Position numbers and translations under genes: made by a program. A stretch of 20,125 nt of DNA from Desulfohalobiaceae bacterium. Its GTDB lineage: Bacteria; Desulfobacterota; Desulfovibrionia; Desulfovibrionales; Desulfothermaceae. Position 1 is the stretch's first letter; each line of letters begins with the position of its first letter. The notes under the pieces were generated by a model. The model saw nothing but the letters and a program-made list of their open reading frames with translations, had not been told where the DNA came from and did not search any database. This document shows positions 201 to 19,558 of the stretch, one piece after another. The stretch covers positions 1-20,125 of the forward strand of contig JAIPDR010000053.1 in assembly GCA_021737615.1 (NCBI GenBank). The letters are read 5' to 3'.

Positions 201-456
201 ATTTCCGATTTCCGATTGCCGATTTTTAAAAAAGGCAGACCTGAAATTGCCGATTTTATGAAACACTCATTTAACGCGGTTGATTTCTGGCTGCGGAAAT
301 CCGTGACGCCGCCATAATCGCTGTGAGTTCGTCTGCTTCTTGGCGGAGACTTGCAACCAATTCTTTGTTGAATTGAAGCTTTACTGCTCAAATCGAAAAT
401 TGGCAATCGGAAATCGGAAATATCAAGAATCGCAAATCCAAAATCCAAAATCAATC
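201..456. repeat. Spacer bracketed by inverted heptamer arrays (CGATTTC/CGATTGC and GGATTTT-type units)
   Basis: Left array 201-228 is atttccgatttccgattgccgattttt. Right array 390-456 is aaatcgaaaattggcaatcggaaatcggaaat...cgcaaatccaaaatccaaaatc. Positions 201-220 are the perfect reverse complement of 402-421 (20 bp). The left array starts 17 nt from the antiporter start and the right array overlaps the MscS stop codon (455-457). Confidence 0.9.
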
Positions 457-1312
457 ATCCCCGGCCCGCCAGGGCCTTGACGGCCTTGGTCTGCTCCAGG
501 AACAGCTGCAGATGAGGAAAGGGAATCTCAATACCGGCCAGATCCAGAGCCTTCTTACATTTTTCCGTGTACTCCCACATCAGGGCGTATTTCATTCCGG
601 GATCTTCCGTCCAGAAGCGAAGCTGCAGGTTGACGCTGCTGTCTCCCAGGCTGGTAACAACGACTGACGGGGCCGGGTCCGGCAAGATCCTCTCATCCCC
701 TTGTATGGTGTTCAGGAGAATGTTCCTGGCCGTATCGATGTCCTCCTTATACGCTATGCCGATGGACATGCGCACCCGCGACTTCGGAGTCAGGGTGTAG
801 TTGATCACCCGTTCCTGGGCCAACTGCTTGTTGGGGACCACCACGGTTTCATTGTCAAAGGTCGTGAGTATGGTGGTTCGCAGCCGTATCTGGGATACCG
901 AGGCGTGCATGTCGCCTATGGATATCCAGTCGCCCTCCTTGAAGGGACGGTCGATGATGATGGCCACCCCGGAAATCAGATTGGCGATGGTGTCCTGCGC
1001 CGCAAAGGACAGGGCCAGACCGGCAATACCTACACCGGCGATCAGTGAGCCCACGTTGATCGAAAGCTGCCCGGCTACGGTCAGAAAGGCAAAAACAAAC
1101 AGGGCATATCTGGCAAAGCGGAGAATGAGATTGACGGCCTGCGGAGAAACCGTGGTCTTGGCCAGGGCGGTGGAAGTGGTTTTCTGGATAACTTTGTTCA
1201 CGATCCAGAACAAGATGATCAAGAAAACGGCCCCAATGACATTGGGGACATATTCCGCGATCCGGGTCATCAAAGATTGCAGGTCAATGGCTTGAAGCAT
1301 ACGTTCGAACAT
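455..1312 (-). CDS. MscS-family small-conductance mechanosensitive channel
   Basis: 285-aa ORF. ATG at 1312 is preceded by AAGGAGG 6 nt upstream. N-terminal TM helices are followed by LISGVAIIIDRPFKEGDWISIGD...TVVVPNKQL, typical of the MscS pore helix and beta domain. Confidence 0.85.
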   Translation of the reverse strand: MFERMLQAIDLQSLMTRIAEYVPNVIGAVFLIILFWIVNKVIQKTTSTALAKTTVSPQAVNLILRFARYALFVFAFLTVAGQLSINVGSLIAGVGIAGLALSFAAQDTIANLISGVAIIIDRPFKEGDWISIGDMHASVSQIRLRTTILTTFDNETVVVPNKQLAQERVINYTLTPKSRVRMSIGIAYKEDIDTARNILLNTIQGDERILPDPAPSVVVTSLGDSSVNLQLRFWTEDPGMKYALMWEYTEKCKKALDLAGIEIPFPHLQLFLEQTKAVKALAGRG

Positions 1313-1322
1313 GAGAGCCTCC

Positions 1323-1351
1323 TTTTAGTCACTTACAAACTTTAGGTGTAC
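1323..1351. repeat. Solo arm of the AAGTGCCTAAAGT hairpin-element family (in the MscS 5' leader)
   Basis: ttttagtcacttacaaactttaggtgtac closely matches the arm at 7311-7338 (gttcacttacaaacttgagtcac). Confidence 0.7.
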
Positions 1352-1404
1352 AGGGCTTGACATTTTGCAACGAAAATGCAAATTTTCAAAAAAGAGGCGA
1401 AAAC

Positions 1405-1786
1405 ATGGTCAATCCGTACATCCAACGCTCTCTGGAGCCGGTTATCAGCAAGGCTGCCGCTCAATTCCCGGCAGTAATCCTGACCGGCCCCCGACAGTCC
1501 GGGAAAACAACCCTGCTCAAACACCTCTTTGGCTTGCAGTATCGATATGTATCCCTGGAAGCCCCTGATTTTCGCGGATCAGCCCAGGAAGATCCGCGCA
1601 GCTTTCTTGAAATTCACGCCCCGCCTGTTATTTTCGGCAACACCCCGTCCGGCTATGGCCTCAGCCCTGAAATCCTTTCACAAGGATTTTCCGAACAAAA
1701 CCCGGCCTGAGTATGTCATCCACCCGGGTGAAGCCTGCTTGCCTCTGGGTCAAAACATAATGGCCCTTCCTTTTGCGCGGCTGTAA
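1405..1786 (+). pseudogene. Remnant of an AAA_14/DUF4143-type ATPase gene (internal deletion plus frame change)
   Basis: ATG 1405 opens MVNPYIQRSLEPVISKAAAQFPAVILTGPRQSGKTTLLKHLF, with Walker A GPRQSGKT, as in ~400-aa DUF4143 ATPases. Family-like sequence is lost after ...PPVIF (~1640) and that frame stops at 1710. A different frame (ORF 1529..1786) ends YVIHPGEACLPLGQNIMALPFARL, resembling the family C-terminus. This is the only plus-strand gene in the window. Confidence 0.6.
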
Positions 1787-1801
1787 AATCAAGAGTCAAT
1801 T

Positions 1802-1846
1802 CCTTTAGGCACTTTAGTTCATTTATCAACTTGAGGCACTTCTTCT
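1802..1846. repeat. Arm of the AAGTGCCTAAAGT hairpin-element family overlapping the 3' end of the PAS kinase gene
   Basis: cctttaggcactttagttcatttatcaacttgaggcacttcttc aligns with the right arm of the element at 15917-15967. Positions 1827-1844 are the exact reverse complement of 6339-6356 (18 nt). The arm encodes EEVPQVDK plus the stop codon. Confidence 0.85.
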
Positions 1847-4800
1847 CTCCCGTCCAGCACCTCCCTCACTTTTCCGGCGATACCTTCCCGCTGAAAGGGT
1901 TTCATGAGTACGGCCCGGATCCCCTTTTCCTTGAGATTCTCCCTGGTAATCCGTTCGCTGAATCCAGTGCAGATGATCACGGGTAGATCCGGCCGGATGG
2001 CCAGCAACCGCAGGGTCAAGTCCTCCCCGGTCATCTGCGGCATGTCCATGTCGGTGATAACCAGATCAAAGGCTTCCGGGTCTGCGGCAAAGACCTCCAG
2101 GGCCTCGAGACTCCCGGTTCGGGCCTCGACCCGATAACCGAGGCCCTCGAGCATCCGCCTGCCGATTCGGACAATGGAGGGTTCGTCGTCCACCAGGAGA
2201 ATACGTTCGGTTCCGGCCTGGAGGGAGGCTTCCGGTTTGGATCGAGGGCCTTCTTCCGCCTCGAGTGCCGGCAGGTAAACCCGAAAGGTCGAGCCCCGGC
2301 CCGGCTCGCTATAGACCGAGATCATGCCTCCGTGCTCCTTGACAATGCCATAGGCCGTGGACAGGCCCAAACCGGTGCCCTTGTGTTTGTCCTTGGTGGT
2401 AAAGAAAGGTTCGAAGATCCGCTGCCTGACCTCCGGCGACATGCCGGGGCCGGTATCGCTGACGGTCAGACGAAGATATTCGCCCGGCTCCATATCGGCA
2501 TCCCGCTTTGTGAATCCTGCATCCAGGTCCGTGACCGAGAGTCCAATCTCAAGAACACCCCCGGTCTCGGCCATGGCCTGGGCCGCGTTGGTGCAGAGAT
2601 TCATCAAGACCTGATGCAGCTGGGAGGGATCACCGGAAACCAAGGGCAGATTCCCCTGAATTTCCCGGCGAATCTCAATGCCGGCCGACAGCGTGGCCTG
2701 GAGCATCTTCACGCTTTCTTTGACCAGGGCCTGGAGTTCCACTGGTTCTTTGTCTCCTTTTTGTTTTCGACTGAAAGCCAAGATCCGCTGCACCAGATCC
2801 GCAGCCCGGTTTCCGGCTTTGAGGATCTCATGCAGATCCCGATGAACCGGGCTGCCCGGTTTGGCCTCCGCAGCGGCCAGCTGGGCCGTGCCAATGATTG
2901 CGGTCAAAATATTGTTGAAATCATGAGCGATACCCCCGGCCAGGGTGCCGATGGCCTCCATTTTCTGGGCCTGCAGAAGTTTGACTTCCAGGTCCTGTTT
3001 CTCCTGTTCAGCCATTTTCCAGTCCGTGATATCACGGGCCAGGCCCTGTACACCCAGGACCTTGCCCAGAGCGTCTTTGCGCAGGGCGGCATTGGTGGAG
3101 ACCCAGACCAGGGAGCCGTCCCGGGCGGGCATTTCCGCCTGAAAATCCTTGAGTTCCCCGGTTTCTTGCAGCGCCGCCAGAAGATCCTCCCGCTGCTCAG
3201 GAATGCGGTAAAATCGAGACATTTGCTCGCCCAGAACCTCTTCCGGGGCATAGCCCAGGATATCCCTAACCGACGGAGAAATAACCGTGATGCGGCCCTT
3301 AGCGTCCGTACGGTAAAAAATGTCCGTGATACTGTAAAAAATATCCTGATATTCCTGCCGGCTTTGCCGCAGAGATCGTTCCATGTCTTTGCGCCGGCTG
3401 ATGTCCTGAACCATGACCTGCACGGCCGGCTGGCCCTCGTAGCTCAGGGCCGTGGCCATGACCTCGACGTCGATGGCCTGCCCGTCCAGGCGGACATAAC
3501 GGTCTTCCACCGGATAGAGACCGGTCTCCCCGGCCAGCATGCGCCGGATTCTGTCCCTTGCCGCGTCCCAATTGTCCGGGTGAATGATCTCCTTGATCGG
3601 CTTGCCCATAAGCTCTTCCGGGGAAGCGGCCCCGATGATCTCCGCCCCGGCCTGATTGCTGAAAACCACCCGTCCCCCGGCATGCACGCAGATCCCCACC
3701 GGCGAGACCTCGATCAGGTTGCGGTAGCGGGCCTCACTCTCCTGGAGCAATTGCTCGGCCTTTTTCAAGCTGCTGATATCGGTGTGGGTGCCGACCACCC
3801 GGACCGCCTTTCCCTGCTCATCATACGAAAAAACCTTGCCCCGGCCCAGGATCCACTTCCAGTGCCCGGATTTCGTCTCCAGCCTGAACTCTTTTTCAAA
3901 AGGCTCGGATTTCTGTGCAATGTGCTCAAGAATGCCTGCCTCGACACCTGCTCTGTCCTCCGGATGCAAAAGACCGGCCCAGGTCTCGTAGCTCTGGGGC
4001 AGCTCATAAGGCGTATAGCCGAGCATGGTGAAATAGCGAGGACTGAAATAGACCTCCCCGGTCCGGACATTCCAGTCCCAGAGGCCGTCATTACTGGCTT
4101 CCAGGGCAAAGGTGAGGCGCTCTTCACTTTTTTTCAGGGCCTCTTCCATGTCAATTTTTTCAGTGACATCCTCGGCCACCTTCACGAAATGAGTGATCGA
4201 GCCGTCTTCAGCAAACATGGGTGAGATGGAGGCCTGCTCCCAATAGAACTTATCATTTTTTTTCCGGTTAGAGAACATCCCCCGCCACTCCCGCCCTGAG
4301 AGCAGGGCCTCAAGCATTTCTTCAGCCTCTTTCTCCGATTGTTCACCCAATTCCATGGCCTTCCGGCCCAGAATCTCTGCGGCGGTATAGCCAGTTATTT
4401 GCTCAAACTTGGGATTCACGTACTCAATGTTGCCTTCACCATCGGTGATCATGACGATGTTCGGGCTTTGTTCGACGGCAGCGGACAATTTTCGAATTTC
4501 TCTCTCCGCCTCCTTGCGCCTGGCCAGCTCCGCCTCCAGGTCCTGCATCTTCTTTTCCAGCTTCTGTACCAAGCGCTGGCTGTAGAGTTTGTAGGTCTCT
4601 TCTTCTGCTCGCTGAGCCGGCTGACCCGGCTCAAGGCCTCGGGCCTCGGCTTCCTCCATCACCGCCTGGACTGCCTTGAGGAAATCGTTCGGCTGCATCG
4701 GCTTGCGCAGGAAGCGGTCCGCCCCCAGCTTAAGGGCAAAAGTCTCGTCCTTGTCGTCCACATACGTGGCCGTGTAAAAGATGAAAGGAATGTTTCGCAG

Positions 4801-5013
4801 GGCCTCGTTGCCCTTGCAGTGCTTGCAGAGCTGGAATCCGTCCATGACCGGCATGAGGATGTCGGCAATGATCAGGTCAAAGGGCTCGGCCTGGAGTTTG
4901 TCCAGGGCTTCCTGGCCGTTTGCAGCCGTGACGGTCTCATACCCCTTGGCCTGGAACATGGTCTGGAGCAGGTAGAGGTTTTCCAGCTTGTCGTCGACGA
5001 TGAGGGCCTTCAT
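1819..5013 (-). CDS. Hybrid sensor histidine kinase: REC - coiled coil - 4 PAS - HisKA - HATPase_c - REC
   Basis: 1064-aa ORF. ATG 5013 follows GGAGAG. The N-terminal receiver has VDD...DLIIADILMP. Four PAS-like blocks follow. The H-box is IAHDFNNILTAI and the HATPase G-boxes are DTGPGM and GTGLGLS. The C-terminal receiver has LLVDDE...DLVITDMDMP...LMKP. Confidence 0.92.
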   Translation of the reverse strand: MKALIVDDKLENLYLLQTMFQAKGYETVTAANGQEALDKLQAEPFDLIIADILMPVMDGFQLCKHCKGNEALRNIPFIFYTATYVDDKDETFALKLGADRFLRKPMQPNDFLKAVQAVMEEAEARGLEPGQPAQRAEEETYKLYSQRLVQKLEKKMQDLEAELARRKEAEREIRKLSAAVEQSPNIVMITDGEGNIEYVNPKFEQITGYTAAEILGRKAMELGEQSEKEAEEMLEALLSGREWRGMFSNRKKNDKFYWEQASISPMFAEDGSITHFVKVAEDVTEKIDMEEALKKSEERLTFALEASNDGLWDWNVRTGEVYFSPRYFTMLGYTPYELPQSYETWAGLLHPEDRAGVEAGILEHIAQKSEPFEKEFRLETKSGHWKWILGRGKVFSYDEQGKAVRVVGTHTDISSLKKAEQLLQESEARYRNLIEVSPVGICVHAGGRVVFSNQAGAEIIGAASPEELMGKPIKEIIHPDNWDAARDRIRRMLAGETGLYPVEDRYVRLDGQAIDVEVMATALSYEGQPAVQVMVQDISRRKDMERSLRQSRQEYQDIFYSITDIFYRTDAKGRITVISPSVRDILGYAPEEVLGEQMSRFYRIPEQREDLLAALQETGELKDFQAEMPARDGSLVWVSTNAALRKDALGKVLGVQGLARDITDWKMAEQEKQDLEVKLLQAQKMEAIGTLAGGIAHDFNNILTAIIGTAQLAAAEAKPGSPVHRDLHEILKAGNRAADLVQRILAFSRKQKGDKEPVELQALVKESVKMLQATLSAGIEIRREIQGNLPLVSGDPSQLHQVLMNLCTNAAQAMAETGGVLEIGLSVTDLDAGFTKRDADMEPGEYLRLTVSDTGPGMSPEVRQRIFEPFFTTKDKHKGTGLGLSTAYGIVKEHGGMISVYSEPGRGSTFRVYLPALEAEEGPRSKPEASLQAGTERILLVDDEPSIVRIGRRMLEGLGYRVEARTGSLEALEVFAADPEAFDLVITDMDMPQMTGEDLTLRLLAIRPDLPVIICTGFSERITRENLKEKGIRAVLMKPFQREGIAGKVREVLDGREEVPQVDK
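4500..5013. repeat. Copy 1 of a ~514-bp direct duplication (REC + coiled-coil module)
   Basis: Collinear with 5825-6338 at a constant offset of 1325 nt. By eye there are only scattered substitutions, and the stretch 4800-4990 versus 6125-6315 is almost identical. Confidence 0.9.
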
Positions 5014-5027
5014 GCGCTCTCCATATC

Positions 5028-5212
5028 ACATTTTGGATTTTGGATTGCGGACCTTCGGATTTTGGCCTATGCCCCGGCTTCCGTCTAGTAGAGCCTACAG
5101 CTCGAAGAGAAGGATTGCGGATAGATTTCAAGAAGAAAATTTTGGTTTTTTCTCATAATAACCAGCTCTTATTCTTCATCTTAACGATCCAAAATCCGCA
5201 ATCCAAAATCCT
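5028..5212. repeat. Spacer bracketed by inverted heptamer arrays, with a conserved core
   Basis: Arrays are 5028-5065 (acattttggattttggattgcggaccttcggattttgg) and 5186-5212 (gatccaaaatccgcaatccaaaatcc). Positions 5035-5051 are the exact reverse complement of 5195-5211 (17 bp). The right array overlaps the HD-GYP stop (5211-5213) and the left array ends 14 nt from the kinase ATG. Core 5127-5187 is homologous to 9601-9662 and, inverted, to 14058-14118. Confidence 0.9.
5155..5184 (-). promoter_or_regulatory. Sigma-70-like hexamer pair inside the conserved core (speculative)
   Basis: The minus strand reads TTAAGA-18 nt-TATTAT. The equivalent positions in the other copies read TTAAGA-18-TATCTG (9600s, minus strand) and GGAAGA-18-CTATAT (14060s, plus strand). 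There is no experimental support and the 18-nt spacer is suboptimal. Confidence 0.2.
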
Positions 5213-6338
5213 AAAAGCTGCCGGCATCGAAAGAAAAGCCTTTGTCCAGATACAGCCTGAGGCAGGCATCCACTGCTCCTGGATCGTACCTGATGCCCCG
5301 GCCCTGCTCGATCTCCTCCAATGCCTGATCCAAATCCAAGGCCGTACGGTAGGGCCGATGAGAGGTCATGGCCTCGACCACGTCGGCCACGGCCATGATA
5401 CGGGCTTCCAACAAGATATCCTTTTCGGACAGGCCCTGGGGATAACCGGAGCCATCCAGTCGCTCGTGATGCTGGAACACGGTCCGGGCGATGGGCCAGG
5501 GGAAGTCGATGTCCTTCAGGATGTCATAACCCGTCTGGGAATGGTTTTGAATCAGGCTGTATTCCATATCTGACAAGCGGACTGATTTGGATAGGATTTC
5601 CGCAGGCACCGCGATCTTTCCAAGATCGTGGATCATGCCTGCCAGAGAGACTCCCTTTTTCTGTTGTTCAGGAAGGGCCAATTCCCCGGCAATGGCCCGG
5701 GCGAGCCTGGCGACGCGGCTCTGGTGCCCGGATGTATAAGGGTCACGCAATTCGACCATTCTGGCGGTGGCCTTGACTGTTCCCTCCAAGGCCTTCCACA
5801 GTTGGGCATGAGCTTTCTGTAGGTTCTCCTCCGCTTGCTTGCGGCCGGCCAGCTCCACTTCCAGATCCTGCATCTTCTGTTCCAGCTTCTGCACCAAGCG
5901 CTGGCTGTAGAGTTTGTAGGTCTCTTCTTCTGCTCGCTGGGCCGGCTGGCCCGGCTCAAGGCCTCGGGCCTCGGCTTCCTCCATCACCGCCTGGGCTGCC
6001 CCGAGAAAGCCGTTCGGCTGCATGGGCTTGCGCAGGAAGCGGTCCGCACCCAGCTTCAAAGCAAAGGCCTCGTCTTTTTCATCCACATACGTGGCCGTGT
6101 AAAAGATGAAAGGAATGTTTCGCAGGGCCTCGTCGCCCTTGCAGTGCTTGCAGAGCTGAAATCCGTCCATGACCGGCATCAGGATGTCGGCAATGATCAG
6201 GTCAAAGGGCTCGGCCTGGAGTTTGTCCAGGGCTTCCTGGCCGTTTGCAGCCGTGACGGTCTCATACCCCTTGGCCTGGAACATGGTCTGGAGCAGGTAG
6301 AGGTTTTCCGGCTTGTCGTCGACGAGGAGGATTTTCAT
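5211..6338 (-). CDS. Response regulator with HD-GYP domain (RpfG-like c-di-GMP phosphodiesterase)
   Basis: ORF 5211..6377. I place the start at ATG 6338 (MKILLVDDKPENLYLL) because it aligns with the MKALIVDDKLENLYLL start of the paralogous module and GAGG lies 8 nt upstream. The longer ORF starts at a GTG inside a repeat. The HD-GYP motifs HDLGK and HHERLDGSGYPQGL are intact. Confidence 0.9.
   Translation of the reverse strand: MKILLVDDKPENLYLLQTMFQAKGYETVTAANGQEALDKLQAEPFDLIIADILMPVMDGFQLCKHCKGDEALRNIPFIFYTATYVDEKDEAFALKLGADRFLRKPMQPNGFLGAAQAVMEEAEARGLEPGQPAQRAEEETYKLYSQRLVQKLEQKMQDLEVELAGRKQAEENLQKAHAQLWKALEGTVKATARMVELRDPYTSGHQSRVARLARAIAGELALPEQQKKGVSLAGMIHDLGKIAVPAEILSKSVRLSDMEYSLIQNHSQTGYDILKDIDFPWPIARTVFQHHERLDGSGYPQGLSEKDILLEARIMAVADVVEAMTSHRPYRTALDLDQALEEIEQGRGIRYDPGAVDACLRLYLDKGFSFDAGSF
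5825..6338. repeat. Copy 2 of the REC + coiled-coil module duplication
   Basis: See 4500-5013. The protein segments are near-identical from LVDDK through QRLVQKLE.KMQDLE.ELA.RK.AE. Confidence 0.9.
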
Positions 6339-6356
6339 AAGAAGTGCCTCAAGTTG
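6339..6356. repeat. Solo arm of the AAGTGCCTAAAGT family immediately upstream of the HD-GYP start
   Basis: aagaagtgcctcaagttg is the exact reverse complement of 1827-1844. Confidence 0.85.
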
Positions 6357-6368
6357 TTTTACATTGTG

Positions 6369-6695
6369 AATCTCCACATTTTGGATTTTGGATTGCGGAA
6401 TTCAGAGTCATGATTTTGAGACTATTTGCTTTTTCTCGCGGTTTTTATCGAAGATACGATTATTGCGATAATTTCATCGTTTTCTTTCATGAGAGCAGGT
6501 ACCGAGTTCGTTTCAAGAATTTTCATCTCCTCTATGATCTCAAGCCAAAACAATGTTTCATCGGCTTCTTCTTCCACTATGGCCAATTTTGAAATAAAAT
6601 CAGCTACAACACCATCCTCCAATCTTCATTCCCCAATCCCTCAGGGGCTTAGTCCAAAGTCCACTTCCCCAATCCAAAATCCGCAATCCAAAATC
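6369..6695. repeat. Inverted heptamer arrays bracketing the four-helix-bundle gene remnant
   Basis: Arrays are 6369-6399 (aatctccacattttggattttggattgcgga) and 6669-6695 (ccaatccaaaatccgcaatccaaaatc). Positions 6384-6399 are the exact reverse complement of 6680-6695 (16 bp). The right array abuts the receiver stop codon (6694-6696). Confidence 0.9.
6422..6622 (-). pseudogene. C-terminal half of a four-helix-bundle protein (23S rRNA intervening-sequence protein family), N-terminal half missing
   Basis: The 66-aa ORF has a TTG as first codon and no ATG. The sequence ...DFISKLAIVEEEADETLFWLEIIEEMKIL...ENDEIIAIIVSSIKTARKSK matches helices 3-4 of the ~120-aa family (..EA.ET.YWLELL..). Upstream sequence in all frames is heptamer repeat, not helices 1-2. 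Confidence 0.6.
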
Positions 6696-7158
6696 ACAGA
6701 TATCGCCTGACCTCGTCCACAAACGATCCGGTATCAATCGGTTTTTCAATATAGCCGTCACAGCCGGCCGCAAAGGTCTTTTCCCGATCGCCCTTCATGG
6801 CATAGGCGGTCATGGCCACTACAGGCATACGCTTCATTTTGGATTTTGGATCTTGGATTTTGGATTCTTCTTTATTCTGTAATCCGGATTCCAAATTCCG
6901 AATTCGCCTCGTGGCCTCATACCCGTCCAGTTTGGGCAACTGCATATCCATCAGAACCAAATCGGGCTTCTTTTGAATGGCCTTTTGCACGCCCTCCTCT
7001 CCATCCCTGGCCTCCAAGACTTCAAAGCCGGCAATTTCCAGTAGAAATCTGGCCAGATACAAGTTTTTCTCCTCATCCTCAACGATCAAGACCTTCTTAT
7101 TCTGCGGCGAAAAATCAGGATTATAGCCCTTGGTGTTCATCATGCTCCATCCTTTCAT
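6694..7158 (-). CDS. Single-domain CheY-like response regulator with an expanded loop
   Basis: 154-aa ORF with ATG at 7158. Alternative starts at 7143/7140 have a better SD (AAGGATGGAG). REC motifs are VLIVEDEE, DLVLMDMQLP, VVAMTAYAMKGD and YIEKP. The loop between RRIRNLE and PVVAMTA is about twice its usual length (see 6835-6905). Confidence 0.88.
   Translation of the reverse strand: MKGWSMMNTKGYNPDFSPQNKKVLIVEDEEKNLYLARFLLEIAGFEVLEARDGEEGVQKAIQKKPDLVLMDMQLPKLDGYEATRRIRNLESGLQNKEESKIQDPKSKMKRMPVVAMTAYAMKGDREKTFAAGCDGYIEKPIDTGSFVDEVRRYL
6835..6905. repeat. Miniature heptamer element inside the receiver CDS, in frame
   Basis: The minus strand reads cggaatttggaatccggatt-acagaataaagaag-aatccaaaatccaagatccaaaatccaaaatg. 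That is an array, an AGAATAA(A)GA core and an inverse array. It translates as NLESGLQNKEESKIQDPKSKMK. Confidence 0.85.
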
Positions 7159-7222
7159 TTTCTTGACTTTATCAACAAATATTAAACAGAATCCCGATTA
7201 TTTTCTCATAATAGTTATTTCC

Positions 7223-7341
7223 GTAAGTGCCTAAAATTAAGCGTTCTGTGTTTCATCGTTTCCCTATTGTCAATGTCTTCCTCTTCCAATTCTGCCAACT
7301 TTAGACACTTTCGTTCACTTACAAACTTGAGTCACTTCGTC
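7223..7341. repeat. ~119-bp hairpin (MITE-like) element, AAGTGCCTAAAGT family
   Basis: The left arm is gtaagtgcctaaaattaagcg (7223-7243). The right arm is ccaactttagacactttcgttcacttacaaacttgagtcacttcgtc (7295-7341). The right arm contains the last six codons (RSDSSL) and the stop codon (7319-7321) of the upstream kinase. Confidence 0.8.
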
Positions 7342-9454: not shown

Positions 9455-9691
9455 ATTGCGGATCTTCCGATTTTTGATTTTGGATCTCCACATTTTGGAT
9501 TTTGGATTGCGGAATGCTGATTGCGGATTTTCCGATTTTTCCCGCTTTATGTCGCTTCCCAACTTTAGTCACTTCTTCGCTCTGCAATATTCACTATAGG
9601 CTTTAAGAAAAAGTTTTTGGATTTATGCCAGATAACCAACTCTTATTCTTTGTCTTAACAATCGAAAATCCAAAATCCAAAATCTAAAATT
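9455..9691. repeat. Spacer bracketed by inverted heptamer arrays, with a conserved core
   Basis: Arrays are 9455-9541 and 9659-9691. Positions 9492-9508 (attttggattttggatt) are the exact reverse complement of 9667-9683 (17 bp). Core 9601-9662 is homologous to 5127-5187. The spacer also carries a solo AAGTG-family arm at 9558-9580 (cccaactttagtcacttcttcgc). Confidence 0.9.
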
Positions 9692-9700
9692 CTATAGTCA

Positions 9701-10750
9701 CTATTCAATCACCCGCCCCACCACCACGGTCAGATCATCGTCCCGTTGGTAGTCGCGGTACAGAACGCCGGCGATCAGCGCAGGGTGCCTGGTCACGAGT
9801 CCGGGGTAAGGGTCCAGACTCCAGCCTGTCTTCAAGCCATCGGAATGCATGACCAGCAAGGGAGGGGAGCCGCCTTCTCTCTCCGGCCAGGGAGTGACGT
9901 AGACCCGGCTGAGCTCCTGGCGGCGCCCCACAATTCCATACCGGGAGACCAGGTGCCGGTTCTGGCTTCCGGAGAGGAGGCAGGCGGAGATGTTTCCCAA
10001 CCCGACAAAACGGACTTCCCGCTTCTGCCTGTCCATTTCCGCAACTGCAGCGGCCGCTCCCCGGGTGCCCCGCAGCCCTGCCTGCATACGCTGCATCATG
10101 TCCTGCAGGTCCAGGCCCGGGTTGGCCTGAAAAATTCGTCTGAGCTCCAGAGAGGCCTCGGCCGCTCCAGGACCATGCCCCAGTCCGTCCGCCACCAAAA
10201 CGGCCCAGCCGTTGGGGCGAGGCTGGAGGGCCCAGTTGTCCCCGCAGACGCTCTGGCCCGGCTTGGGCAGGCAGATCCCGGCCACCTCGAACCCGGGGGC
10301 TGAAGGCTTGGCCAGACCGCCTTTCGGCCGGAGGCAGGCCATGAGCACGGTCCCCTGGTCCGGGAGGGAATGGATATCAAACTGGGAACTCAAACGGCGC
10401 ATGGCCCCGAGACCGGTTCCCGGGCTGCCTGTGCTGGAAAAGCCGTCCTGGAGACATTGTCCCACATTCTGCATCCCCGGTCCCTTGTCAATAGCCACGA
10501 TCCGCAGGCCGGACATTTGGCCCAGCTGGACCGTATCCAGGAGCAGCTCCCCGGACCGGGCGTGTTTGAGCAGGTTGGTCCCGGCCTCGGTGACCACGAT
10601 GGCTGTTTTGCCGGTTTGATCCTCACTGAAGCCCAGCTTGCGGGCCAGGTTCACGGCCTTCCGCCGCACTTCGGCGATCCGGCTTTGCTCGGTAACGGAA
10701 AAGGCCAGGCTGCAGCCCGGGCTTTCCTGAGGTATTGAATATGGTCTCAT
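9701..10750 (-). CDS. Fusion of GHKL Ser-kinase-like domain (HATPase_c_2, RsbW/RsbT-like) and PP2C/SpoIIE phosphatase (RsbX/RsbU role)
   Basis: ORF 9701..10804. I place the start at ATG 10750 (MRPYSIPQE), which forms an ATGA overlap with the rsbT stop (10747-10749). Kinase-like motifs are VTEAGTNLLKHA, DKGPGM and GSPGTGLGAMRR. PP2C motifs are VCGDNW, VADGLGHGPGAA, MHSDGL and DDDLTVVV. Confidence 0.85.
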   Translation of the reverse strand: MRPYSIPQESPGCSLAFSVTEQSRIAEVRRKAVNLARKLGFSEDQTGKTAIVVTEAGTNLLKHARSGELLLDTVQLGQMSGLRIVAIDKGPGMQNVGQCLQDGFSSTGSPGTGLGAMRRLSSQFDIHSLPDQGTVLMACLRPKGGLAKPSAPGFEVAGICLPKPGQSVCGDNWALQPRPNGWAVLVADGLGHGPGAAEASLELRRIFQANPGLDLQDMMQRMQAGLRGTRGAAAAVAEMDRQKREVRFVGLGNISACLLSGSQNRHLVSRYGIVGRRQELSRVYVTPWPEREGGSPPLLVMHSDGLKTGWSLDPYPGLVTRHPALIAGVLYRDYQRDDDLTVVVGRVIE

Positions 10751-11533: not shown

Positions 11534-11579
11534 GCTAGCGCCTTTCAGAAGAGGTTTTGATTGACTATTGATTATTTCA

Positions 11580-11650
11580 GCAATCGACAATCCAACATGT
11601 GAAGATCCAAAATCTCCAATCCGCAATCCAAAATCCGCAATCCAAAATCC
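11580..11650. repeat. Unpaired 71-bp heptamer array filling most of the rsbR-rsbS spacer
   Basis: gcaatcgacaatccaacatgtgaagatccaaaatctccaatccgcaatccaaaatccgcaatccaaaatcc starts directly after the rsbR stop codon (11651-11653). I found no complementary array before the rsbS start. Confidence 0.9.
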
Positions 11651-12520: not shown

Positions 12521-12551
12521 CCTGAAACCTCCTGTTTTGAATTGAATATGG

Positions 12552-12592
12552 GGAAGAAGTGCCTAAAGTTTGAAAAAGTACCTGAAGGAATT
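12552..12592. repeat. Arm of the AAGTGCCTAAAGT family in the rsbR leader
   Basis: ggaagaagtgcctaaagtttgaaaaagtacctgaaggaatt contains two sub-repeats (aagtgcctaaagt and aagtacctgaagg). It may pair with the arm at 12846-12880 across a 250-bp insert. Confidence 0.75.
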
Positions 12593-12845
12593 GGCTATCG
12601 AATAAATCCACAAGTCACTCTCTCCGATCTGTAGGCTCTACGAGTAGGAAGCCGTCCATTAAGCCTTACTCTCTGACCCGTAGACTCCCGGGTCTACCCT
12701 CCAGCCTGTAAACCCTACGGGCTGTAAGCGGAACCGGGAGCCCTGTCTAAGCCAAGATTTTCTATATATTCCATCTCCGTTGCATACATTTTGATCTTTT
12801 GTCAAACTCAGGTCGTCCTCCGTCGATATCTTGAAAATCGAAAAT

Positions 12846-12880
12846 CCTATAGTTCACTTATCGACTTGAGGCGCTTCTTC
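12846..12880. repeat. Arm of the AAGTGCCTAAAGT family overlapping the 3' end of the SBP/4-Cys sensor gene
   Basis: Positions 12854-12880 (tcacttatcgacttgaggcgcttcttc) differ at only 3 of 27 positions from 1819-1845. The arm encodes EEAPQVDK plus the stop codon. Confidence 0.85.
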
Positions 12881-14020
12881 AAATTCAGAGTAGAGCAGGG
12901 CCTCGCAATCCGGGCAGATGCCGTGGGAAAATGTAGCTTCTGAGTGTTTCTTGATGAAGAATTCGATCTGGTTCCAGTAGCCCTGGTCGTCCCGGATCTT
13001 TTTGCAGTTGGCGCAGATTGGGATGAGCCCTTTCAAGGTCTTGACTTGGACCAGGGCTTCCTGGAGCCGGTTCCGCTCATTGAGAAGCGCAGTCTCAGCC
13101 GCAGTTTTCCGGGCGATTTCCTCCTCCAGGGTCGTATTACGTTCCTTCAATTCTCTGGTTTTGGATCTGACCTGCTGTTTCAAGACCAGGCTGAAGAGAG
13201 CAAACAGACAGCCCAGGCCGACTGCCGCGGCCAATCCGAAAAGCAAAGCCCTGGGCACCTCCCGTTCCACCCGCATGTCGAACCAGTGCTCCAGGGTCTG
13301 GTTGTAGAAGGAATTCCGGTCCTGCTTCAGGACGGAAAGCTGTTGATCAATAGCGGCCGCCAGGTCCTGGTTATGCCCTTTGGGAAAGGCGAATCTGAGT
13401 TCCACCGGGGCCAGGACGATGGGCGTCCGCCTGACCTCGTATTTGTCCTCCTCGGCCAGGCCGTAGAGCCTGCTGATGATCCCGGCCTCCGCCGCTCCCC
13501 GGTCCAGGGCTTGAAAGACTTCTTTGTAACCGCTGCAGAGCACATACTCGCAGGCAATGTTGAACTGCTTGAAGCGTTCAAAGGAGATACCCCCTTGCAT
13601 GACCGCGACTCTTTTGCCCTGAAGCTGCTCGACGTTTTCAATGTCCAATCCTGCGCGGCTGTAAATCCTAGCCCAGTTGGAGAGCACGGTCTCCCGGTTG
13701 AAGTCATACATTTCGGCCCGGTCCCGGCTATAGGCCACATCCACCATGATATCCAGCTTGCCGGCCCGCAGCCGGTCCAGGCACTGCTGCCAGGTCCCGG
13801 GCACATAGTCCAGGTCCCAGCCTTCCTGCCTCGCGATATCCCCCAGAAGATCCACCCAGATTCCGGCGGGCCTGCCGGCCTCATCCAGGTAGACCTTGGG
13901 CTTGTTCTGATAGATGCCCACCCGGACCGTCTCGGCAGCAGACCCTGAAGCCGGGAGCCAGAACAGGAGCAACAGGGCGATGAGCAGCCGTATGAAATTT
14001 TGGATTTTGGATCTCCACAT
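12854..14020 (-). CDS. Membrane sensor: signal peptide - periplasmic SBP_bac_3 (Venus-flytrap) domain - TM - coiled coil - short 4-Cys C-terminal domain
   Basis: ORF 12854..14101 has a TTG as first codon. The likely start is ATG 14020 (MWRSKIQNFIRLLIALLLLFWLPASGSAA, signal-peptide-like). The SBP domain begins VRVGIYQNKPKVYLDEAG...DIMVDVAYSRDRAEMYDF. The TM segment is ALLFGLAAAVGLGCLFALFSLVL. The C-terminus is ICANCKKIRDDQGYWNQIEFFIKKHSEATFSHGICPDCEALLY. Confidence 0.85.
   Translation of the reverse strand: MWRSKIQNFIRLLIALLLLFWLPASGSAAETVRVGIYQNKPKVYLDEAGRPAGIWVDLLGDIARQEGWDLDYVPGTWQQCLDRLRAGKLDIMVDVAYSRDRAEMYDFNRETVLSNWARIYSRAGLDIENVEQLQGKRVAVMQGGISFERFKQFNIACEYVLCSGYKEVFQALDRGAAEAGIISRLYGLAEEDKYEVRRTPIVLAPVELRFAFPKGHNQDLAAAIDQQLSVLKQDRNSFYNQTLEHWFDMRVEREVPRALLFGLAAAVGLGCLFALFSLVLKQQVRSKTRELKERNTTLEEEIARKTAAETALLNERNRLQEALVQVKTLKGLIPICANCKKIRDDQGYWNQIEFFIKKHSEATFSHGICPDCEALLYSEFEEAPQVDK
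13090..13965. repeat. Copy 1 of a ~0.88-kb duplicated sensor module (SBP domain + TM + start of coiled coil)
   Basis: Collinear with 17542-18417 at an offset of 4452 nt. Identical runs of 40-60 nt occur, for example gccaggccgtagagcctgctgatgatcccggcctccgccgctcccc. The protein segments are roughly 85-90% identical by eye. Confidence 0.9.
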
Positions 14021-14247
14021 TTTGGATTTTGGATCTCCACATTTTGGATTTTGGATTAGGAAGACACAGAATAAGAACTGGTCTATATGGAATAAATCCA
14101 ATACCTTTTTCCTAAAGCATCTATCCCTCAGGGCCGGCCTCCAGCTCCGCTACGGGCCGGAGAGTAAAGTATACGCCCTGGAGAAAAGCCAAAATCGACC
14201 CTCTTTCTTTTTCCGCAATCCAAAATCCGCATTCCAAAATCCAAAAT
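13996..14247. repeat. Spacer bracketed by inverted heptamer arrays, with the conserved core in opposite orientation
   Basis: The left array (13996-14057) contains the 22-bp unit attttggattttggatctccac in 2.8 tandem copies (13997-14018, 14019-14040, 14041-14057). The right array is 14212-14247. Positions 14041-14055 are the exact reverse complement of 14233-14247 (15 bp). Core 14058-14118 is homologous to the reverse complement of 9601-9662. Confidence 0.9.
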
Positions 14248-14250
14248 TCT

Positions 14251-15783
14251 TCAAACGCTTTCCCACTCAAACCCCACGATATTCCGTTTCTCACTGGAAA
14301 ACTCCACCCCGATCAAATAGACCTCCTGCCCGGCGAATTTTTCCGCGTACCCCCTGGCCTTGATCTGTTCCAGGGCCCCGGCTTGATCCGTGAGCTCCAC
14401 CACCTTGAACTCGATCAGATAGATCCGGTCCTCAAAACGCAGGGTCAGGTCCATCCTGCCCTTGTTCGTCGGCTCTTCAGGATGGACGTCCAGCCCAAGG
14501 GCTGCAAAATAACAGTAGACAATGGAGGCGTAGTAGCCTTCATACCCGGCCAATTGGTTCTTGCGATACCAGTCATGGGGGATGGAGGCGAAAAAGGCCT
14601 GAAACAGCTCACGGAGCTTATCCAGGTCATTGACTGAGAGGGCATCCAGCAGATCGGACTGATTTCTGGTCTTGGCCAGGCGGGCCTGGGATAGTCCGTT
14701 CAAAATGGAGTTGGTCAGACTGGCCTTGACCTCCATGTTGGGGTAACCAAGGCGATACCGGCTAAAGGCCCCGGTCTGGGAAAAGCCCCTGATAGTCAAG
14801 TAGCCGGTCTGGAAAAGAAGGGCCTCCGCAACAATTGAATCGATATCAAAACTGCCCACGATTTCCTCTCCCACGGTCAGGTCTTCCACTTCCGGGATGC
14901 TGTACCGGCCCTCCTGCAGCAGTTTGACCAGAAAACCCGGGGTTCCGGTTTCAAACCAATAATTCCGAAATTCCTTAGAATCCAAATACAGCAGAATATC
15001 AAAAGGGTTATAGACCTCGTCTCCCAGCCAGTTGTACCCATTGTACCACTGTTGGACCTGATCCTTATCCACCCCGTCCAAACGATCCACAAAGACCGTC
15101 TCCAATTCCTGCTGGGTATATCCACAAATCGCTGAAAAGCGCTTATCCAGGGTGATGTCCTTGAGGTTGTTCAAACCGCTGAACAAGGAAACCTTGCTGA
15201 ATTTGGAGACCCCGGTGATGAATACGAATTCTAGATAGGGATCGGCATCCTTGATCACTGAGTAGTAGTTCTTGAGCTCCTCTCTGATTTCCACAGCTGT
15301 TGCCGGTTTTTCAATATTGTCCAGGATGGGCTTGTCATATTCGTCCACCAGGACCACCACTTTTTGGCCGAATTGCCTGCACAAGGTGTGGATCAGTTCG
15401 GCGAAGCGGCTTCTCAAATCATCATAGCTGAAAGAAATTTTGTATTCTTTCGCATGCTCGGATAATATATAGGTAAAAGATTGCTGAAGCTCCTCAATAG
15501 TTCTCAGCACTCCGGAGCCAAAGCTGATATGGACCACCGGATTCGTCCGGTCCCAATCCCAGTGATCAAAAAGATACTGTCCTTGAAACAAGTCCTTTTT
15601 GCCTTGATAGGCGGCCTTGATGGTGCTCAGGAACAAACTCTTGCCGAAGCGCCTAGGCCGGGAGAGGAAGTAATAATCCCCGGCCTGGGCCAGCTCGCTG
15701 ATAAACCGTGTTTTATCGACATAGTAACAGTTGCTTTCAATCAGCTTTTCAAAGGTCTGAATGCCGATGGGCAGCTTTTTCAT
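14251..15783 (-). CDS. AAA-ATPase-like protein with C-terminal PD-(D/E)XK nuclease domain (AAA-ATPase_like + PDDEXK_9 architecture)
   Basis: 510-aa ORF. ATG 15783 has AGGAG 9 nt upstream. The N-terminus MKKLPIGIQTFEKLIESNCYYVDKTRFI...FLSRPRRFGKSL is the family hallmark. The C-terminus GRMDLTLRFEDRIYLIEFKV carries the D...ExK nuclease motif. Confidence 0.88.
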   Translation of the reverse strand: MKKLPIGIQTFEKLIESNCYYVDKTRFISELAQAGDYYFLSRPRRFGKSLFLSTIKAAYQGKKDLFQGQYLFDHWDWDRTNPVVHISFGSGVLRTIEELQQSFTYILSEHAKEYKISFSYDDLRSRFAELIHTLCRQFGQKVVVLVDEYDKPILDNIEKPATAVEIREELKNYYSVIKDADPYLEFVFITGVSKFSKVSLFSGLNNLKDITLDKRFSAICGYTQQELETVFVDRLDGVDKDQVQQWYNGYNWLGDEVYNPFDILLYLDSKEFRNYWFETGTPGFLVKLLQEGRYSIPEVEDLTVGEEIVGSFDIDSIVAEALLFQTGYLTIRGFSQTGAFSRYRLGYPNMEVKASLTNSILNGLSQARLAKTRNQSDLLDALSVNDLDKLRELFQAFFASIPHDWYRKNQLAGYEGYYASIVYCYFAALGLDVHPEEPTNKGRMDLTLRFEDRIYLIEFKVVELTDQAGALEQIKARGYAEKFAGQEVYLIGVEFSSEKRNIVGFEWESV

Positions 15784-15797
15784 AAGGACAGGCTCCT

Positions 15798-15844
15798 GAT
15801 TTTGGATTGCGGATTTTGGATTGCGGATTGCAGATTTTGGATTT
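15798..15844. repeat. Heptamer array just upstream of the AAA-ATPase-like gene's RBS
   Basis: gattttg gattgcg gattttg gattgcg gattgca gattttg gattt is about 6.7 units. It lies 14 nt from the ATG at 15783. Confidence 0.9.
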
Positions 15845-15847
15845 GAC

Positions 15848-15967
15848 GGAAGTGCCTAAAGTCGGGGAACACCTAAAGTATTCGGAATTATAAGAGCGGT
15901 CGCTGCAGTCTCCGTTCCGTCAACTTTAGTCGCTTTAGTTCACTTCTCAACTTTAGCTCACTTCTTC
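15848..15967. repeat. ~120-bp hairpin (MITE-like) element, AAGTGCCTAAAGT family
   Basis: The left arm is ggaagtgcctaaagtcggggaacacctaaagtattcgg (15848-15885). The right arm is ccgtcaactttagtcgctttagttcacttctcaactttagctcacttcttc (15917-15967). The terminal ~15 nt are imperfect inverted repeats. The right arm encodes EEVS plus the stop codon (15953-15955) of the upstream kinase. Confidence 0.85.
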
Positions 15968-18460: not shown

Positions 18461-18475
18461 GTACAAGCTCTTCAC

Positions 18476-18521
18476 ATTGCGGATTTTGGATCTTCCGATT
18501 TTGAATCTCCCGATTTTGGAG
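18476..18521. repeat. Heptamer array filling the 50-nt spacer between the DUF5615 remnant and the SBP kinase
   Basis: attgcggattttggatcttccgattttgaatctcccgattttggag mixes GGATTTT and CGATTTT units. Confidence 0.85.
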
Positions 18522-18525
18522 ATCT

Positions 18526-18857
18526 TTAGAGAGGCAAGAATTGAACATGAGTTAGCAGATCTTCAGGTTCGCCGGCAGTTGAAATGAGCTCCAGATCTCT
18601 TATACAAGTGCCGATCGTCGTCCCCATCGGATGGCAATAGATTACCCCCGCAAAAGGCGTTTCCTCCTTTTGTCGTTTTGCCGCCTCAGCGAGAAAATCG
18701 TCATCATGCGTGAAAAGCACCCGGCCCAGTTGTGTGGATCGGTCTAACAATTCTGAATCGTCCATCTCGTCGGAACCATCTTCATGTGGGCTGTCAGAAC
18801 ATCTACACCATGTAAACGCAGACCCAAGGTTATGGATCGGGGGACATTATGGTCCAT
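18526..18857 (-). pseudogene. DUF5615 (PIN-like, Mut7-C-type) toxin gene disrupted by a frameshift near 18784
   Basis: ATG 18857 opens MDHNVPRSITLGLRLHGVDVLTAH. That frame then runs into MKMVPTRWTIQNC and a stop. The family sequence continues in another frame as EDGSDEMDDSELLDRSTQLGRVLFTHDDDFL... (ORF 18526..18765). Two extra nt (at, 18785-18784), or equivalently one missing nt, separate the two frames. The gene lies 17 nt downstream of the DUF433 gene. Confidence 0.7.
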
Positions 18858-18874
18858 ATAAAGTGGAATCACAA

Positions 18875-19201
18875 TCAGATCAGTCCCTTGGATTTGAGCC
18901 TGGCCGCGAGAGGGGTTTGGCCCTCGGTTTTTCGAGCCTGCCTCACAAAAGCAAGCCTTTTTTCAATGTCCCTATCAATCGCTTCCTGGTGATCCCAATA
19001 GTAAGCCAAAGCAGAGTATATCTGGCCAAGTGTCAGGTGAGGATGCTGAAAATACAGTTCTTCGGGGCTCCACCCGTAGGCGATCTTTTCCACAACGATC
19101 TCGATCACCTTCATGTTTGTTCCTGCTATGACCGGTACGCCTTTGGCATCCAGCGCCACGTGCTCATACCGTGTTTTCTCAACAGTCAATGACATGATCA
19201 T
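18875..19201 (-). CDS. DUF433-domain antitoxin-like protein
   Basis: ORF 18875..19204 has a GTG first codon followed by ATGs at 19201 and 19195. AGGA lies upstream. The sequence ...VPVIAGTNMKVIEIVVEKIAYGWSPEELYFQHPHLTLGQIYSALAYYWDHQEAID is a typical DUF433 core. Confidence 0.8.
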   Translation of the reverse strand: MIMSLTVEKTRYEHVALDAKGVPVIAGTNMKVIEIVVEKIAYGWSPEELYFQHPHLTLGQIYSALAYYWDHQEAIDRDIEKRLAFVRQARKTEGQTPLAARLKSKGLI

Positions 19202-19412
19202 CACCTTTTCCTTTCATCTCCTGTTTCATGGGTACCTCTTATCTTCTATACCAGAAGTTGGCATAAATTGCGCTTCTTATCTGCCGTCGATGACAGCTCT
19301 CCTGGGTCATGTGAGACAGGAGATGTATTTTGGGCCAACTTCTGGTATCTATTTGATAAATTGAAATATAAAAAAACTCAAAAGTCAAGAAACCACCCCC
19401 GTCCCTCCTCCT

Positions 19413-19558
19413 CTCCAATCCAAAATCCGCAATCCCTCCGGGGCATAGGCCCCTACGGGCCGGAGGCCAAAATCCAATATTCAATTCCTCCTCCCCATTC
19501 CCCATTCCCCATACCCCATTCCGCATTCCAAAATCCAAAATGTGAAGATCCAAAATCA
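19413..19558. repeat. Composite heptamer arrays with variant units downstream of the GGDEF gene
   Basis: 19413-19439 reads ctccaatccaaaatccgcaatccctcc. 19494-19558 reads cccattccccattccccataccccattccgcattccaaaatccaaaatgtgaagatccaaaatcac, about 9 units grading from CCCCATT to CCAAAAT. The second array overlaps the GGDEF stop codon (19556-19558). Confidence 0.9.

Follow-up and report, generated by a model that had tools for sequence, protein, structure and literature searches.

Arrays of tandem heptamers lie between the genes of a 20,125-nt contig (JAIPDR010000053.1; the whole of this stretch is called the window here) from a Desulfohalobiaceae metagenome-assembled genome (MAG; GCA_021737615.1). 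These arrays are probably the two arms of small selfish elements that were inserted between genes, that resemble rRNA intervening sequences (IVS) and that in part still carry remnants of a PF05635 gene. The arms would be terminal inverted repeats made of NNGGATT heptamers, and the elements would have entered an ancestrally compact signalling operon directly behind native stop codons and then decayed; two loops now appear to hold 5'-truncated PF05635 remnants and one a toxin-antitoxin remnant, with no recognisable open reading frame (ORF) in the rest. Documented below are the architecture of the arrays, their association with PF05635 genes, the status of the spacers as insertions and the predicted folds.

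Some 15 genes, every one on the minus strand, are found in the window, 84% of which is coding. An earlier interpretation made from the letters alone (the sequence-only reading) had described heptamer arrays beside stop and start codons, with complementary runs in five spacers, and this description stands. Tandem Repeats Finder (TRF) returned period-7 arrays at essentially every place described, seven stop codons are each touched by an array or lie no more than about 10 nt before one, and arrays lie 14-30 nt from the start codons listed or contain them. All five complementary runs are exact reverse complements of 15-20 nt (201-220/402-421, 5035-5051/5195-5211, 6384-6399/6680-6695, 9492-9508/9667-9683 and 14041-14055/14233-14247). 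The units stand head-to-tail and share a core of GGATT plus two variable nucleotides. Junctions on the stop side are tight: the MscS stop TGA runs directly into TTGATTTTGG, the HD-GYP stop TAG (minus strand) into GATTTTGG and the rsbR stop TAG into GGATTTTGG, while the REC and GGDEF stops both read TGA followed by TTTTGG; 3 nt separate the AAA-ATPase TGA from its array and about 10 nt the PP2C TAG. Missed by the sequence-only reading were an in-frame inverted mini-pair in the REC gene, an array after the SBP stop, an array at 19417-19435 and a second repeat family. The arms and arrays between the genes are as follows.

201-228: heptamer arm, CCGATTT/GGATT type on the plus strand, 17 nt from the antiporter start at 183; its partner is 390-456 (exact 20-nt complement), with which it forms the closing stem in the predicted fold.
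390-456: heptamer arm, AAATCGG/AAAATCC on the plus strand, overlapping the MscS stop at 455.
5028-5065: heptamer arm, with the PAS-kinase start (5013) 14 nt downstream of it; seen by TRF, complementarity and fold.
5186-5212: heptamer arm overlapping the HD-GYP stop; seen by TRF, complementarity and fold.
6369-6399: heptamer arm, with the HD-GYP start (6338) 30 nt downstream of it; seen by TRF, complementarity and fold.
6666-6695: heptamer arm, CCCCAATCCAAAATCCGCAATCCAAAATC, touching the REC stop at 6694.
9455-9541: heptamer arm that adjoins the RsbT-kinase start (9454) on its upstream side.
9659-9691: heptamer arm, separated by about 10 nt from the PP2C stop (9701).
11575-11650: heptamer arm touching the rsbR stop at 11651, with a degenerate partner at about 11545-11570, before the rsbS start at 11533.
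12835-12853: short array of two units, 6 nt beyond the stop of SBP/4-Cys (12854); the sequence reads TGA ACTATAGGATTTTCGATTTTC.
13996-14057: heptamer arm with a 22-nt higher-order unit, ATTTTGGATTTTGGATCTCCAC (TRF, 100% match), containing the candidate SBP start at 14020.
14212-14247: heptamer arm 3 nt from the AAA-ATPase stop at 14251.
15798-15844: heptamer arm, with the AAA-ATPase start (15783) 14 nt downstream of it and no heptamer partner; the remainder of its spacer is the second repeat family.
18476-18521: heptamer arm, with the SBP-kinase start (18460) 15 nt downstream of it.
19417-19558: AATCC/CCCCATT-type arrays ending on the GGDEF stop at 19556, with a loop of about 970 nt back to 18521.

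The arrays had also been described as oriented strictly by position, one way at stops and the other way at starts. The pattern itself is real, but it is not an independent fact, as it equals one convergent inverted pair per spacer: (GGATTNN)n...(NNAATCC)n is identical on either strand, so a convergent pair that fills a spacer gives this pattern whatever the orientation of the neighbouring genes. The core heptamers are strongly intergenic (GATTTTG 14/17, CAAAATC 17/18, AAAATCC 14/15, i.e. 82-94% within the 16% of DNA that is non-coding) and the 20-mer GATTTTGGATTGCGGATTTT occurs four times in the window against 0.00 expected. Given this intergenic bias and the 20-mer count, chance does not explain the placement of the arrays.

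Two of the loops between arms contain sequence related to PF05635/TIGR02436, the family of the 23S rRNA intervening-sequence protein (S23p), a pentameric four-helix bundle that is a relative of Avd, the accessory protein of diversity-generating retroelements.

6425-6625: 5'-truncated PF05635/TIGR02436 gene, C-terminal half, minus strand like the host genes, within the arm pair of spacer 6339-6693.
274-387: weak PF05635 remnant covering the last helix of the four-helix bundle, minus strand, in the loop of spacer 184-454.

The first of these matches Pfam PF05635 with an E-value of 1.5e-5 over profile positions 56-105 of 106, exceeds the TIGR02436 cut-off of 24 bits with a score of 41 bits, and matches a hidden Markov model (HMM) built here from 80 PF05635 genes with an E-value of 5e-24; its DNA is 68-83% identical to PF05635 genes on unrelated contigs. 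The second was found with the same HMM at an E-value of 2.2e-4 among 509 window segments (profile positions 87-113) and has no NCBIfam match. Both remnants lie on the host strand and end 24-45 nt from an arm, as PF05635 genes do in intact elements. PF05635 remnants were sought in the loops of 5014-5215, 9455-9703, 13990-14253 and 12521-12853 and none was detected.

The large loop of the 18476-19558 arm pair holds other genes. A DUF433 gene (18875-19204, minus strand) is followed by a DUF5615-like gene in two frames, with fragments at 18744-18872 and 18526-18765 on the minus strand (Pfam E-value 2e-4, below the cut-off); the DUF433 gene and the broken DUF5615-like gene look like decayed toxin-antitoxin cargo.

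The association of heptamer arrays with PF05635 genes extends well beyond the window. Among 80 PF05635 genes from metagenomes, picked by protein similarity alone (tblastn), a GGATT array lies within 250 nt upstream of the gene in 27, an AATCC array within 250 nt downstream in 31, and both are present in 23; the reverse layout occurs in about one case among the 80. Many of the genes have other heptamers in the same layout (GCGGAAT, GCGAAAT, CGATTTT, GGAGTGC and ATTTACT). Array density within 250 nt of a PF05635 gene is 1.65 per kb and in the remaining 165 kb of the contigs 0.03 per kb, a 55-fold difference, and where at least 300 nt are available on both sides (62 loci) a period-7 array is found on at least one side in 52 and on both in 28. 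These elements have a median length of 502 nt and a median exact complementary run of 17 nt between their arms. Furthermore, the upstream array begins between -5 and +15 nt relative to the stop codon of an ORF in the same orientation (at least 80 aa) in 31 of 39 cases, as against 5% for random positions, and the stop is frequently in register with the first unit (TGA-TTTTGGATT, TAA-TTTTGG, TAG-GATTTT). PF05635 genes thus lie inside the arm pairs and ordinary genes outside them. Loci that had been selected by their arrays give the same picture, with full-length PF05635 genes inside convergent pairs in L043 (Calditrichia) and L108 and adjoining arrays in L093.

An isolate genome provides a further case. 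In the supplementary table of Rehm et al. 2015 (PMC4692102), repeat #15 of Xanthomonas campestris lies 6 nt past the stop of bccP (XCC0517) and overlaps the annotated start of XCC0516, a homologue of S23p with a solved pentameric structure (Lin et al. 2006, as cited in PMC4990558). This is an independent example of the link between arrays and PF05635, a link that Rehm et al. did not draw, though their own table puts the repeat on XCC0516. A literature search returned no published connection between PF05635 and heptamers except for a single remark on GACAGAT in Coxiella, and the link appears to be new.

Looking up proteins of the window by exact match gave no entry. The genes between which the arrays lie, whose assignments in the sequence-only reading are consistent with Pfam, are these.

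Minus strand: MscS, a PAS hybrid kinase, an HD-GYP response regulator, a single-domain REC protein, an RsbT-like hybrid kinase and PP2C.
Minus strand, continued: homologues of RsbT, RsbS and RsbR, an SBP protein, AAA-ATPase_like/PDDEXK_9, an SBP hybrid kinase, DUF433 and GGDEF.

The order RsbR-RsbS-RsbT-PP2C-kinase-REC recurs in L200 (ENA ERZ24794647 NODE_36358, 865-5842), where the operon is compact and free of arrays and can stand as the reference for an empty site. Its junctions measure 14 nt, an overlap, 15, -4 and 17 nt, against 117 nt between rsbR and rsbS, 246 nt between PP2C and kinase, 160 nt between kinase and REC and 355 nt after REC in the window. The 117-nt rsbR-rsbS spacer, for which the rsbS start at 11533 was set by alignment to L200, consists of a well-kept arm at the rsbR stop and a degenerate partner. 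The C-termini of PP2C (VVVGRVIE in the window, VMVGKVI in L200) and of REC (FVDEVRRYL and FVDEVKKFL) are co-terminal; since both proteins end at the same residues in the two genomes, the native stops were kept and the extra DNA starts right after them. Any element that lands in a junction of at most 17 nt must reach with its arms both the preceding stop and the neighbourhood of the following start. Comparison of the two operons hence shows the long spacers of the window as insertions into a once compact operon. The comparison of orthologous spacers that the sequence-only reading had proposed, run here with this one relative, found no comparable spacers in the orthologous operon.

Within the REC gene itself a smaller pair is translated.

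6836-6905: inverted heptamer mini-pair, in frame within the REC gene (6694-7158, minus strand), encoding ...RNLESGLQNKEESKIQDPKSKMK...

The encoded stretch is an insertion of about 25 aa in a loop of the receiver domain, which is DivK-like. REC homologues are mostly 119-124 aa long among the 120 matches listed, and eight unexpanded homologues, when aligned, read ...RIKADE-KLSKIPVVALT... and all lack the insertion. In the window REC and a few relatives (P0003, P0004, P0006 and P0022) a translated heptamer pair stands at the same point (RNLESGL...SKIQDPKSK), the loops differ in length and two have about 35 aa extra between the arms. This in-frame pair is a further sign of insertion.

The same arrays are spread over many genomes. 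The 20-mer GATTTTGGATTGCGGATTTT has exact matches at at least 119 loci in species-representative genomes, where about one would be expected by chance. By record title, the hosts of the matches listed include Acidobacteriota/Pyrinomonadaceae, Planctomycetota, Chloroflexota, Desulfobacterales, Bacteroidota, Calditrichia, Nitrospinota, Chlamydiae and Omnitrophica, with Nostoc, Chamaesiphon and Rivularia among the Cyanobacteria. Among these 119 loci listed, pairs with a gap of at most 150 nt are convergent in 29 instances and divergent in none, and an outer arm edge lies within 10 nt of an ORF stop in 19/31 and 19/40 cases, as against 2/43 and 1/27 for the inner edge. Array pairs, some with very short loops, are also found between convergent genes and between or beside tRNA genes (L017 4029-4082, L106 5854-5925).

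In one Acidobacteriota MAG (L066, 2431-4667) heptamer hairpins are present in each spacer of a ribosomal-protein operon (S5, L18, L6 and S8). This locus, with L017 and L106, shows that the elements are tolerated in highly expressed, essential transcription units.

Such geometry could in principle arise without any mobile element, from repeats that expand in place by slippage and whose orientation is sorted by selection: G-poor, A-rich and unstructured AAAAUCC leaders would be favoured or tolerated before starts, and their complement after stops. Position-specific selection of this kind gives the same geometry as one inserted element under any arrangement of neighbours, and heptamers are the most over-represented long simple repeats in bacteria, at least as cited in PMC4679880 and PMC4692102. 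Copy number and unit order do differ between related loci (window 15798-15844 compared with L037 596-660). Slippage alone is nevertheless an improbable origin. It does not account for identical mixtures of GGATTTT and GGATTGC in distant phyla, the recurrence of one exact 20-mer, the 55-fold concentration at PF05635 genes that sit inside the pairs, the very short-looped pairs between convergent genes and between tRNA genes, or the unit-by-unit match of two arms.

In minimum-energy and centroid predictions the paired spacers close on a stem between the two arrays, as the sequence-only reading had supposed. Its proposed comparison with shuffled controls, done with dinucleotide shuffles, favours the stems in four spacers, with z-scores of -4.68 for 5014-5215, -5.64 for 13990-14253, -3.27 for 184-460 and -2.25 for 9455-9703, and is weak for 6339-6697, which has a long loop (-1.14). 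The complementary run averages 15.5 nt between the arms of one element and 12.0 nt across elements (p = 1.6e-6).

These stems had been read as host devices: intercistronic regulatory structures, evolved by the host, that would bring the stop beside the next start and in this way serve RNase III processing, couple translation or occlude the ribosome-binding site. The prediction of stems in all five paired spacers, with z-scores down to -5.64, and the greater complementarity of arms from the same element are what such a device would lead one to expect. The remaining evidence makes it unlikely. The predicted stem includes neither the Shine-Dalgarno sequence nor the AUG in three spacers (5014-5215, 6339-6697 and 9455-9703); the orthologous L200 operon works with overlapping or 14-17 nt junctions and no arrays; arrays follow unrelated genes in many phyla and also occur in the REC coding sequence and between tRNA genes; and pseudogene remnants sit in the loops. 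Coupling or occlusion by host design is therefore not upheld, and of the earlier proposal the likeness to RNase III substrates survives as an analogy: with cleavage of the Coxiella element as precedent it is plausible that the arm stems are RNase III substrates.

A third possibility is that the arrays serve primarily as periodic binding sites for a protein, such as the PF05635 pentamer, CsrA (via GGA motifs), ribosomal protein S1 or cold-shock proteins, with the hairpin secondary. This would be compatible with an inserted element. Arrays co-occur with PF05635 genes and the stop-side RNA has one GGA per 7 nt; moreover S1, Csp and CsrA have been proposed for TAACTGA repeats (PMC4679880) and a heptamer-binding factor for Nostoc (bioRxiv 10.1101/2022.06.06.494920). 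As the primary role, binding is given little credence, because most window arrays have no intact PF05635 gene nearby, the units differ widely among PF05635 elements (GGATTTT, GCGGAAT, GCGAAAT, ATTTACT) and a strongly predicted stem would compete with single-strand binding.

Several further candidates were rejected outright: an integron cassette array, since there are no attC-type RYYYAAC/GTTRRRY core sites at the arm ends and RsbR-S-T-PP2C-kinase-REC is a conserved operon order in L200; G-quadruplex formation, since the dominant units GGATTTT and GGATTGC carry only GG and GGGG is confined to minor AATCCCC units; repetitive extragenic palindromic (REP) sequences and REPINs, since the arms are tandem heptamer arrays and not the single imperfect palindromes of 20-40 nt, mobilised by a RAYT transposase, that make up this class; and intrinsic terminators, since no U-tract follows the stems and terminator-like sites lie elsewhere. 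In consensus scans of the window, 25 terminator-like sites were found against 24.2, and 15 promoter-like sites against 9.6 ± 3.3, in shuffles, none of either kind coinciding with the arms.

A motif in the start-side arms, AAAATGTGGAGAT (GGAG plus ATG), is found at 13997-14056, where it belongs to the 22-nt higher-order repeat, and at 6370-6382 and 9484-9496. The gene downstream may draw a ribosome-binding site or a start codon from this motif. There are five copies in the window and none in all 203 fetched loci, so that a general outward-facing Shine-Dalgarno sequence at the element end was rejected and the motif regarded as lineage-specific.

Decayed, inserted elements therefore remain the preferred account of the arrays, and their history at the level of RNA can be sketched as follows. 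Each element fills a whole spacer, so its arms touch the upstream stop and sit just before the downstream ribosome-binding site. It would be transcribed by read-through from the host gene, whereupon the arms would pair into a stem of about 17-30 bp. By analogy with the Coxiella element, RNase III might then cut this arm stem, excising the element RNA and splitting the polycistronic transcript, with a possible effect on host expression. The ORF would be lost gradually, leaving ORF-less hairpins, and slippage would alter how long the arrays are and how their units are ordered, without the arms of an element losing their match to each other.

Certain points weigh against this account. The 80 loci of the survey are the best tblastn matches (44-56% identity) to a query from an array-flanked element and are biased to that subfamily, and the gene calls of the surveys are crude, being stop-to-stop ORFs of at least 80-100 aa. 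None of the 80 PF05635 loci overlaps an rRNA gene, and the idea that this subfamily sits in rRNA genes was rejected. Most array pairs, both in the window and in the array-rich genomes sampled, have no PF05635 sequence, so their origin from ORF-bearing elements is extrapolated. L200 is a distant orthologue (32-65% protein identity) rather than a sister genome and gives no date for the insertions. Pfam found no transposase domain in the window, target-site duplications were not evident at 35 aligned left junctions or at the pairs inspected, for which there is no close empty-site reference, and no other mobility signature was found. Finally, the RNA-level steps would follow from predicted folds and the Coxiella precedent, and the proposed equation with classical IVS from shared architecture and protein family.

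The closest known repeats, those of Rehm et al. 2015 (PMC4692102), have the unit GGGAATC in Xanthomonas and GGGGAYT in Nostoc PCC 7120. They are 89-93% intergenic, and a Xanthomonas genome has 70-75 inverted pairs of convergent layout. Past stops, at 0-50 bp and with stop overlaps included, the coding strand is the G-rich one; before starts it is the non-coding strand. The arrays of the window share with them the tandem 7-nt units with variable positions, the strong intergenic bias, the convergent pairs and the same strand rule, so the arrangement is not, as had been thought, undescribed. They differ in that the window units have two Gs only, which makes the G-quadruplex idea of Rehm et al. 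inapplicable, and in their host, a Desulfohalobiaceae MAG. A likeness to the short tandemly repeated repetitive (STRR) sequences of Cyanobacteria was rightly suspected, as the AATCCCC units of the window are a rotation of STRR1 (GGGGATT, or CCCCAAT). TAACTGA heptamers, which end a few nt before starts in marine Beggiatoaceae, Cyanobacteria and Bacteroidetes (MacGregor 2015, PMC4679880), resemble the window arrays in their start-side position, their presence in ribosomal-protein operons, their patchy phylum distribution suggesting horizontal spread and their occasional in-frame ORF copies. In contrast, they are nearly all direct (one inverted pair in 170 sets), have another unit, and come with no reported stop-codon arm or cargo gene. 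Neither Rehm 2015 (PMC4692102) nor MacGregor 2015 (PMC4679880) explains the arrangement.

The IVS of 23S rRNA are the other close parallel. That of Coxiella is a 428-nt selfish element with a decaying S23p ORF and a 28-bp terminal stem within which RNase III cleavage sites have been mapped; its 5' arm has GACAGAT heptamers in tandem, three to four of them depending on the strain (PMC4990558). In Leptospira the S23p ORF lies between terminal inverted repeats, as far as cited in PMC4990558. The elements described here likewise have a PF05635 ORF (truncated at 6425-6625, weak at 274-387, none in other loops) and complementary termini forming a long stem, and they share with the Coxiella IVS the 5'-arm heptamers of variable copy number and the decay of the ORF; like it, they would be selfish, horizontally acquired and transcribed within host RNA. 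Unlike rRNA IVS, they lie after protein-coding genes and not in a 16S or 23S helix, and both of their arms are long heptamer arrays; RNase III cleavage is demonstrated for rRNA IVS only. An Rfam search of the window gave no match, and it holds no rRNA.

The Correia/NEMIS sequences of Neisseria and the REP/BIME sequences are short palindromes without a transposase, intergenic and sometimes in frame, whose co-transcribed hairpins can be RNase III targets or stabilise mRNA ends. REP sequences are frequently found just after stops and have the RAYT transposase, and Correia elements have a TA target duplication. The elements of the window resemble a miniature inverted-repeat transposable element (MITE) in their terminal inverted repeats, many copies and lack of a transposase domain in the window. 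They differ from Correia and REP sequences, which are inverted repeats of unique sequence, in that their arms are tandem heptamer arrays; neither a Correia-type target duplication nor RAYT turned up here, and no genome search for RAYT was made. Bacterial MITEs that are processed in mRNA, such as Correia/NEMIS, are treated in the overview PMC2229807.

A wider proposal, for and against which the scales are evenly poised, is that STRR-like arrays in general are the arms of one widespread family of PF05635-encoding, IVS-like elements, which would lodge after stops in the orientation of the host gene, ride on host transcripts and decay to ORF-less hairpins, with the pentameric Avd-related protein acting on the arms. 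STRR-like arrays have stood unexplained in cyanobacterial, Xanthomonas and many other genomes since 1990; STRR, GGGAATC/GGGGAYT and TAACTGA repeats have been reported piecemeal and none has an accepted origin or function. The geometry seen here was published in 2015 for related units, and what appears to be new, apart from the single Coxiella remark, is the link to PF05635 and the placement right after stops across many phyla. The evidence joins to heptamer arrays the PF05635 "intervening-sequence proteins", orphan genes that are abundant and have a solved structure but as yet no known role. Such elements can convert a compact, translationally coupled operon to one with hairpin-folding spacers of 100-350 nt, and if RNase III cuts the stems this would amount to large-scale reshaping of operon transcripts in Desulfobacterota, Acidobacteriota, Planctomycetota, Cyanobacteria and other phyla. 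Repetitive in-frame insertions in proteins would find an explanation in these elements as well.

The second repeat family of the window, GAAGTGCCTAAAGTT / AACTTTAGGCACTTC, is present where a spacer has no pair of heptamer arms (1313-1818, 7159-7318, 12521-12853 and part of 15784-15952). Copies are found at 1335-1350, 1805-1845, 6343-6360, 7222-7240, 7290-7340, 9558-9578, 12555-12590, 12855-12880, 15852-15885 and 15920-15965, and most of them form convergent pairs across these spacers, as the heptamers do elsewhere. The family covers the last codons and the stop of three hybrid-kinase or SBP genes (C-termini EVPQVDK*, EVTQVCK* and EAPQVDK*), and behind the GGDEF stop, where heptamers stand in the window, the related MAG locus L037 has this family instead.

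Spacer 1313-1818 also holds, at 1357-1710 on the plus strand, a 117-aa AAA_14 ATPase fragment, the sole plus-strand ORF with a domain match and probably a pseudogene remnant. Elsewhere, the N-terminal receiver-domain regions of the PAS hybrid kinase (4504-5005) and the HD-GYP regulator (5829-6330) are 93.6% identical over 502 nt, an identity that stops 8 nt before both start codons. The similarity of the two sequences points to a recent duplication or gene conversion.

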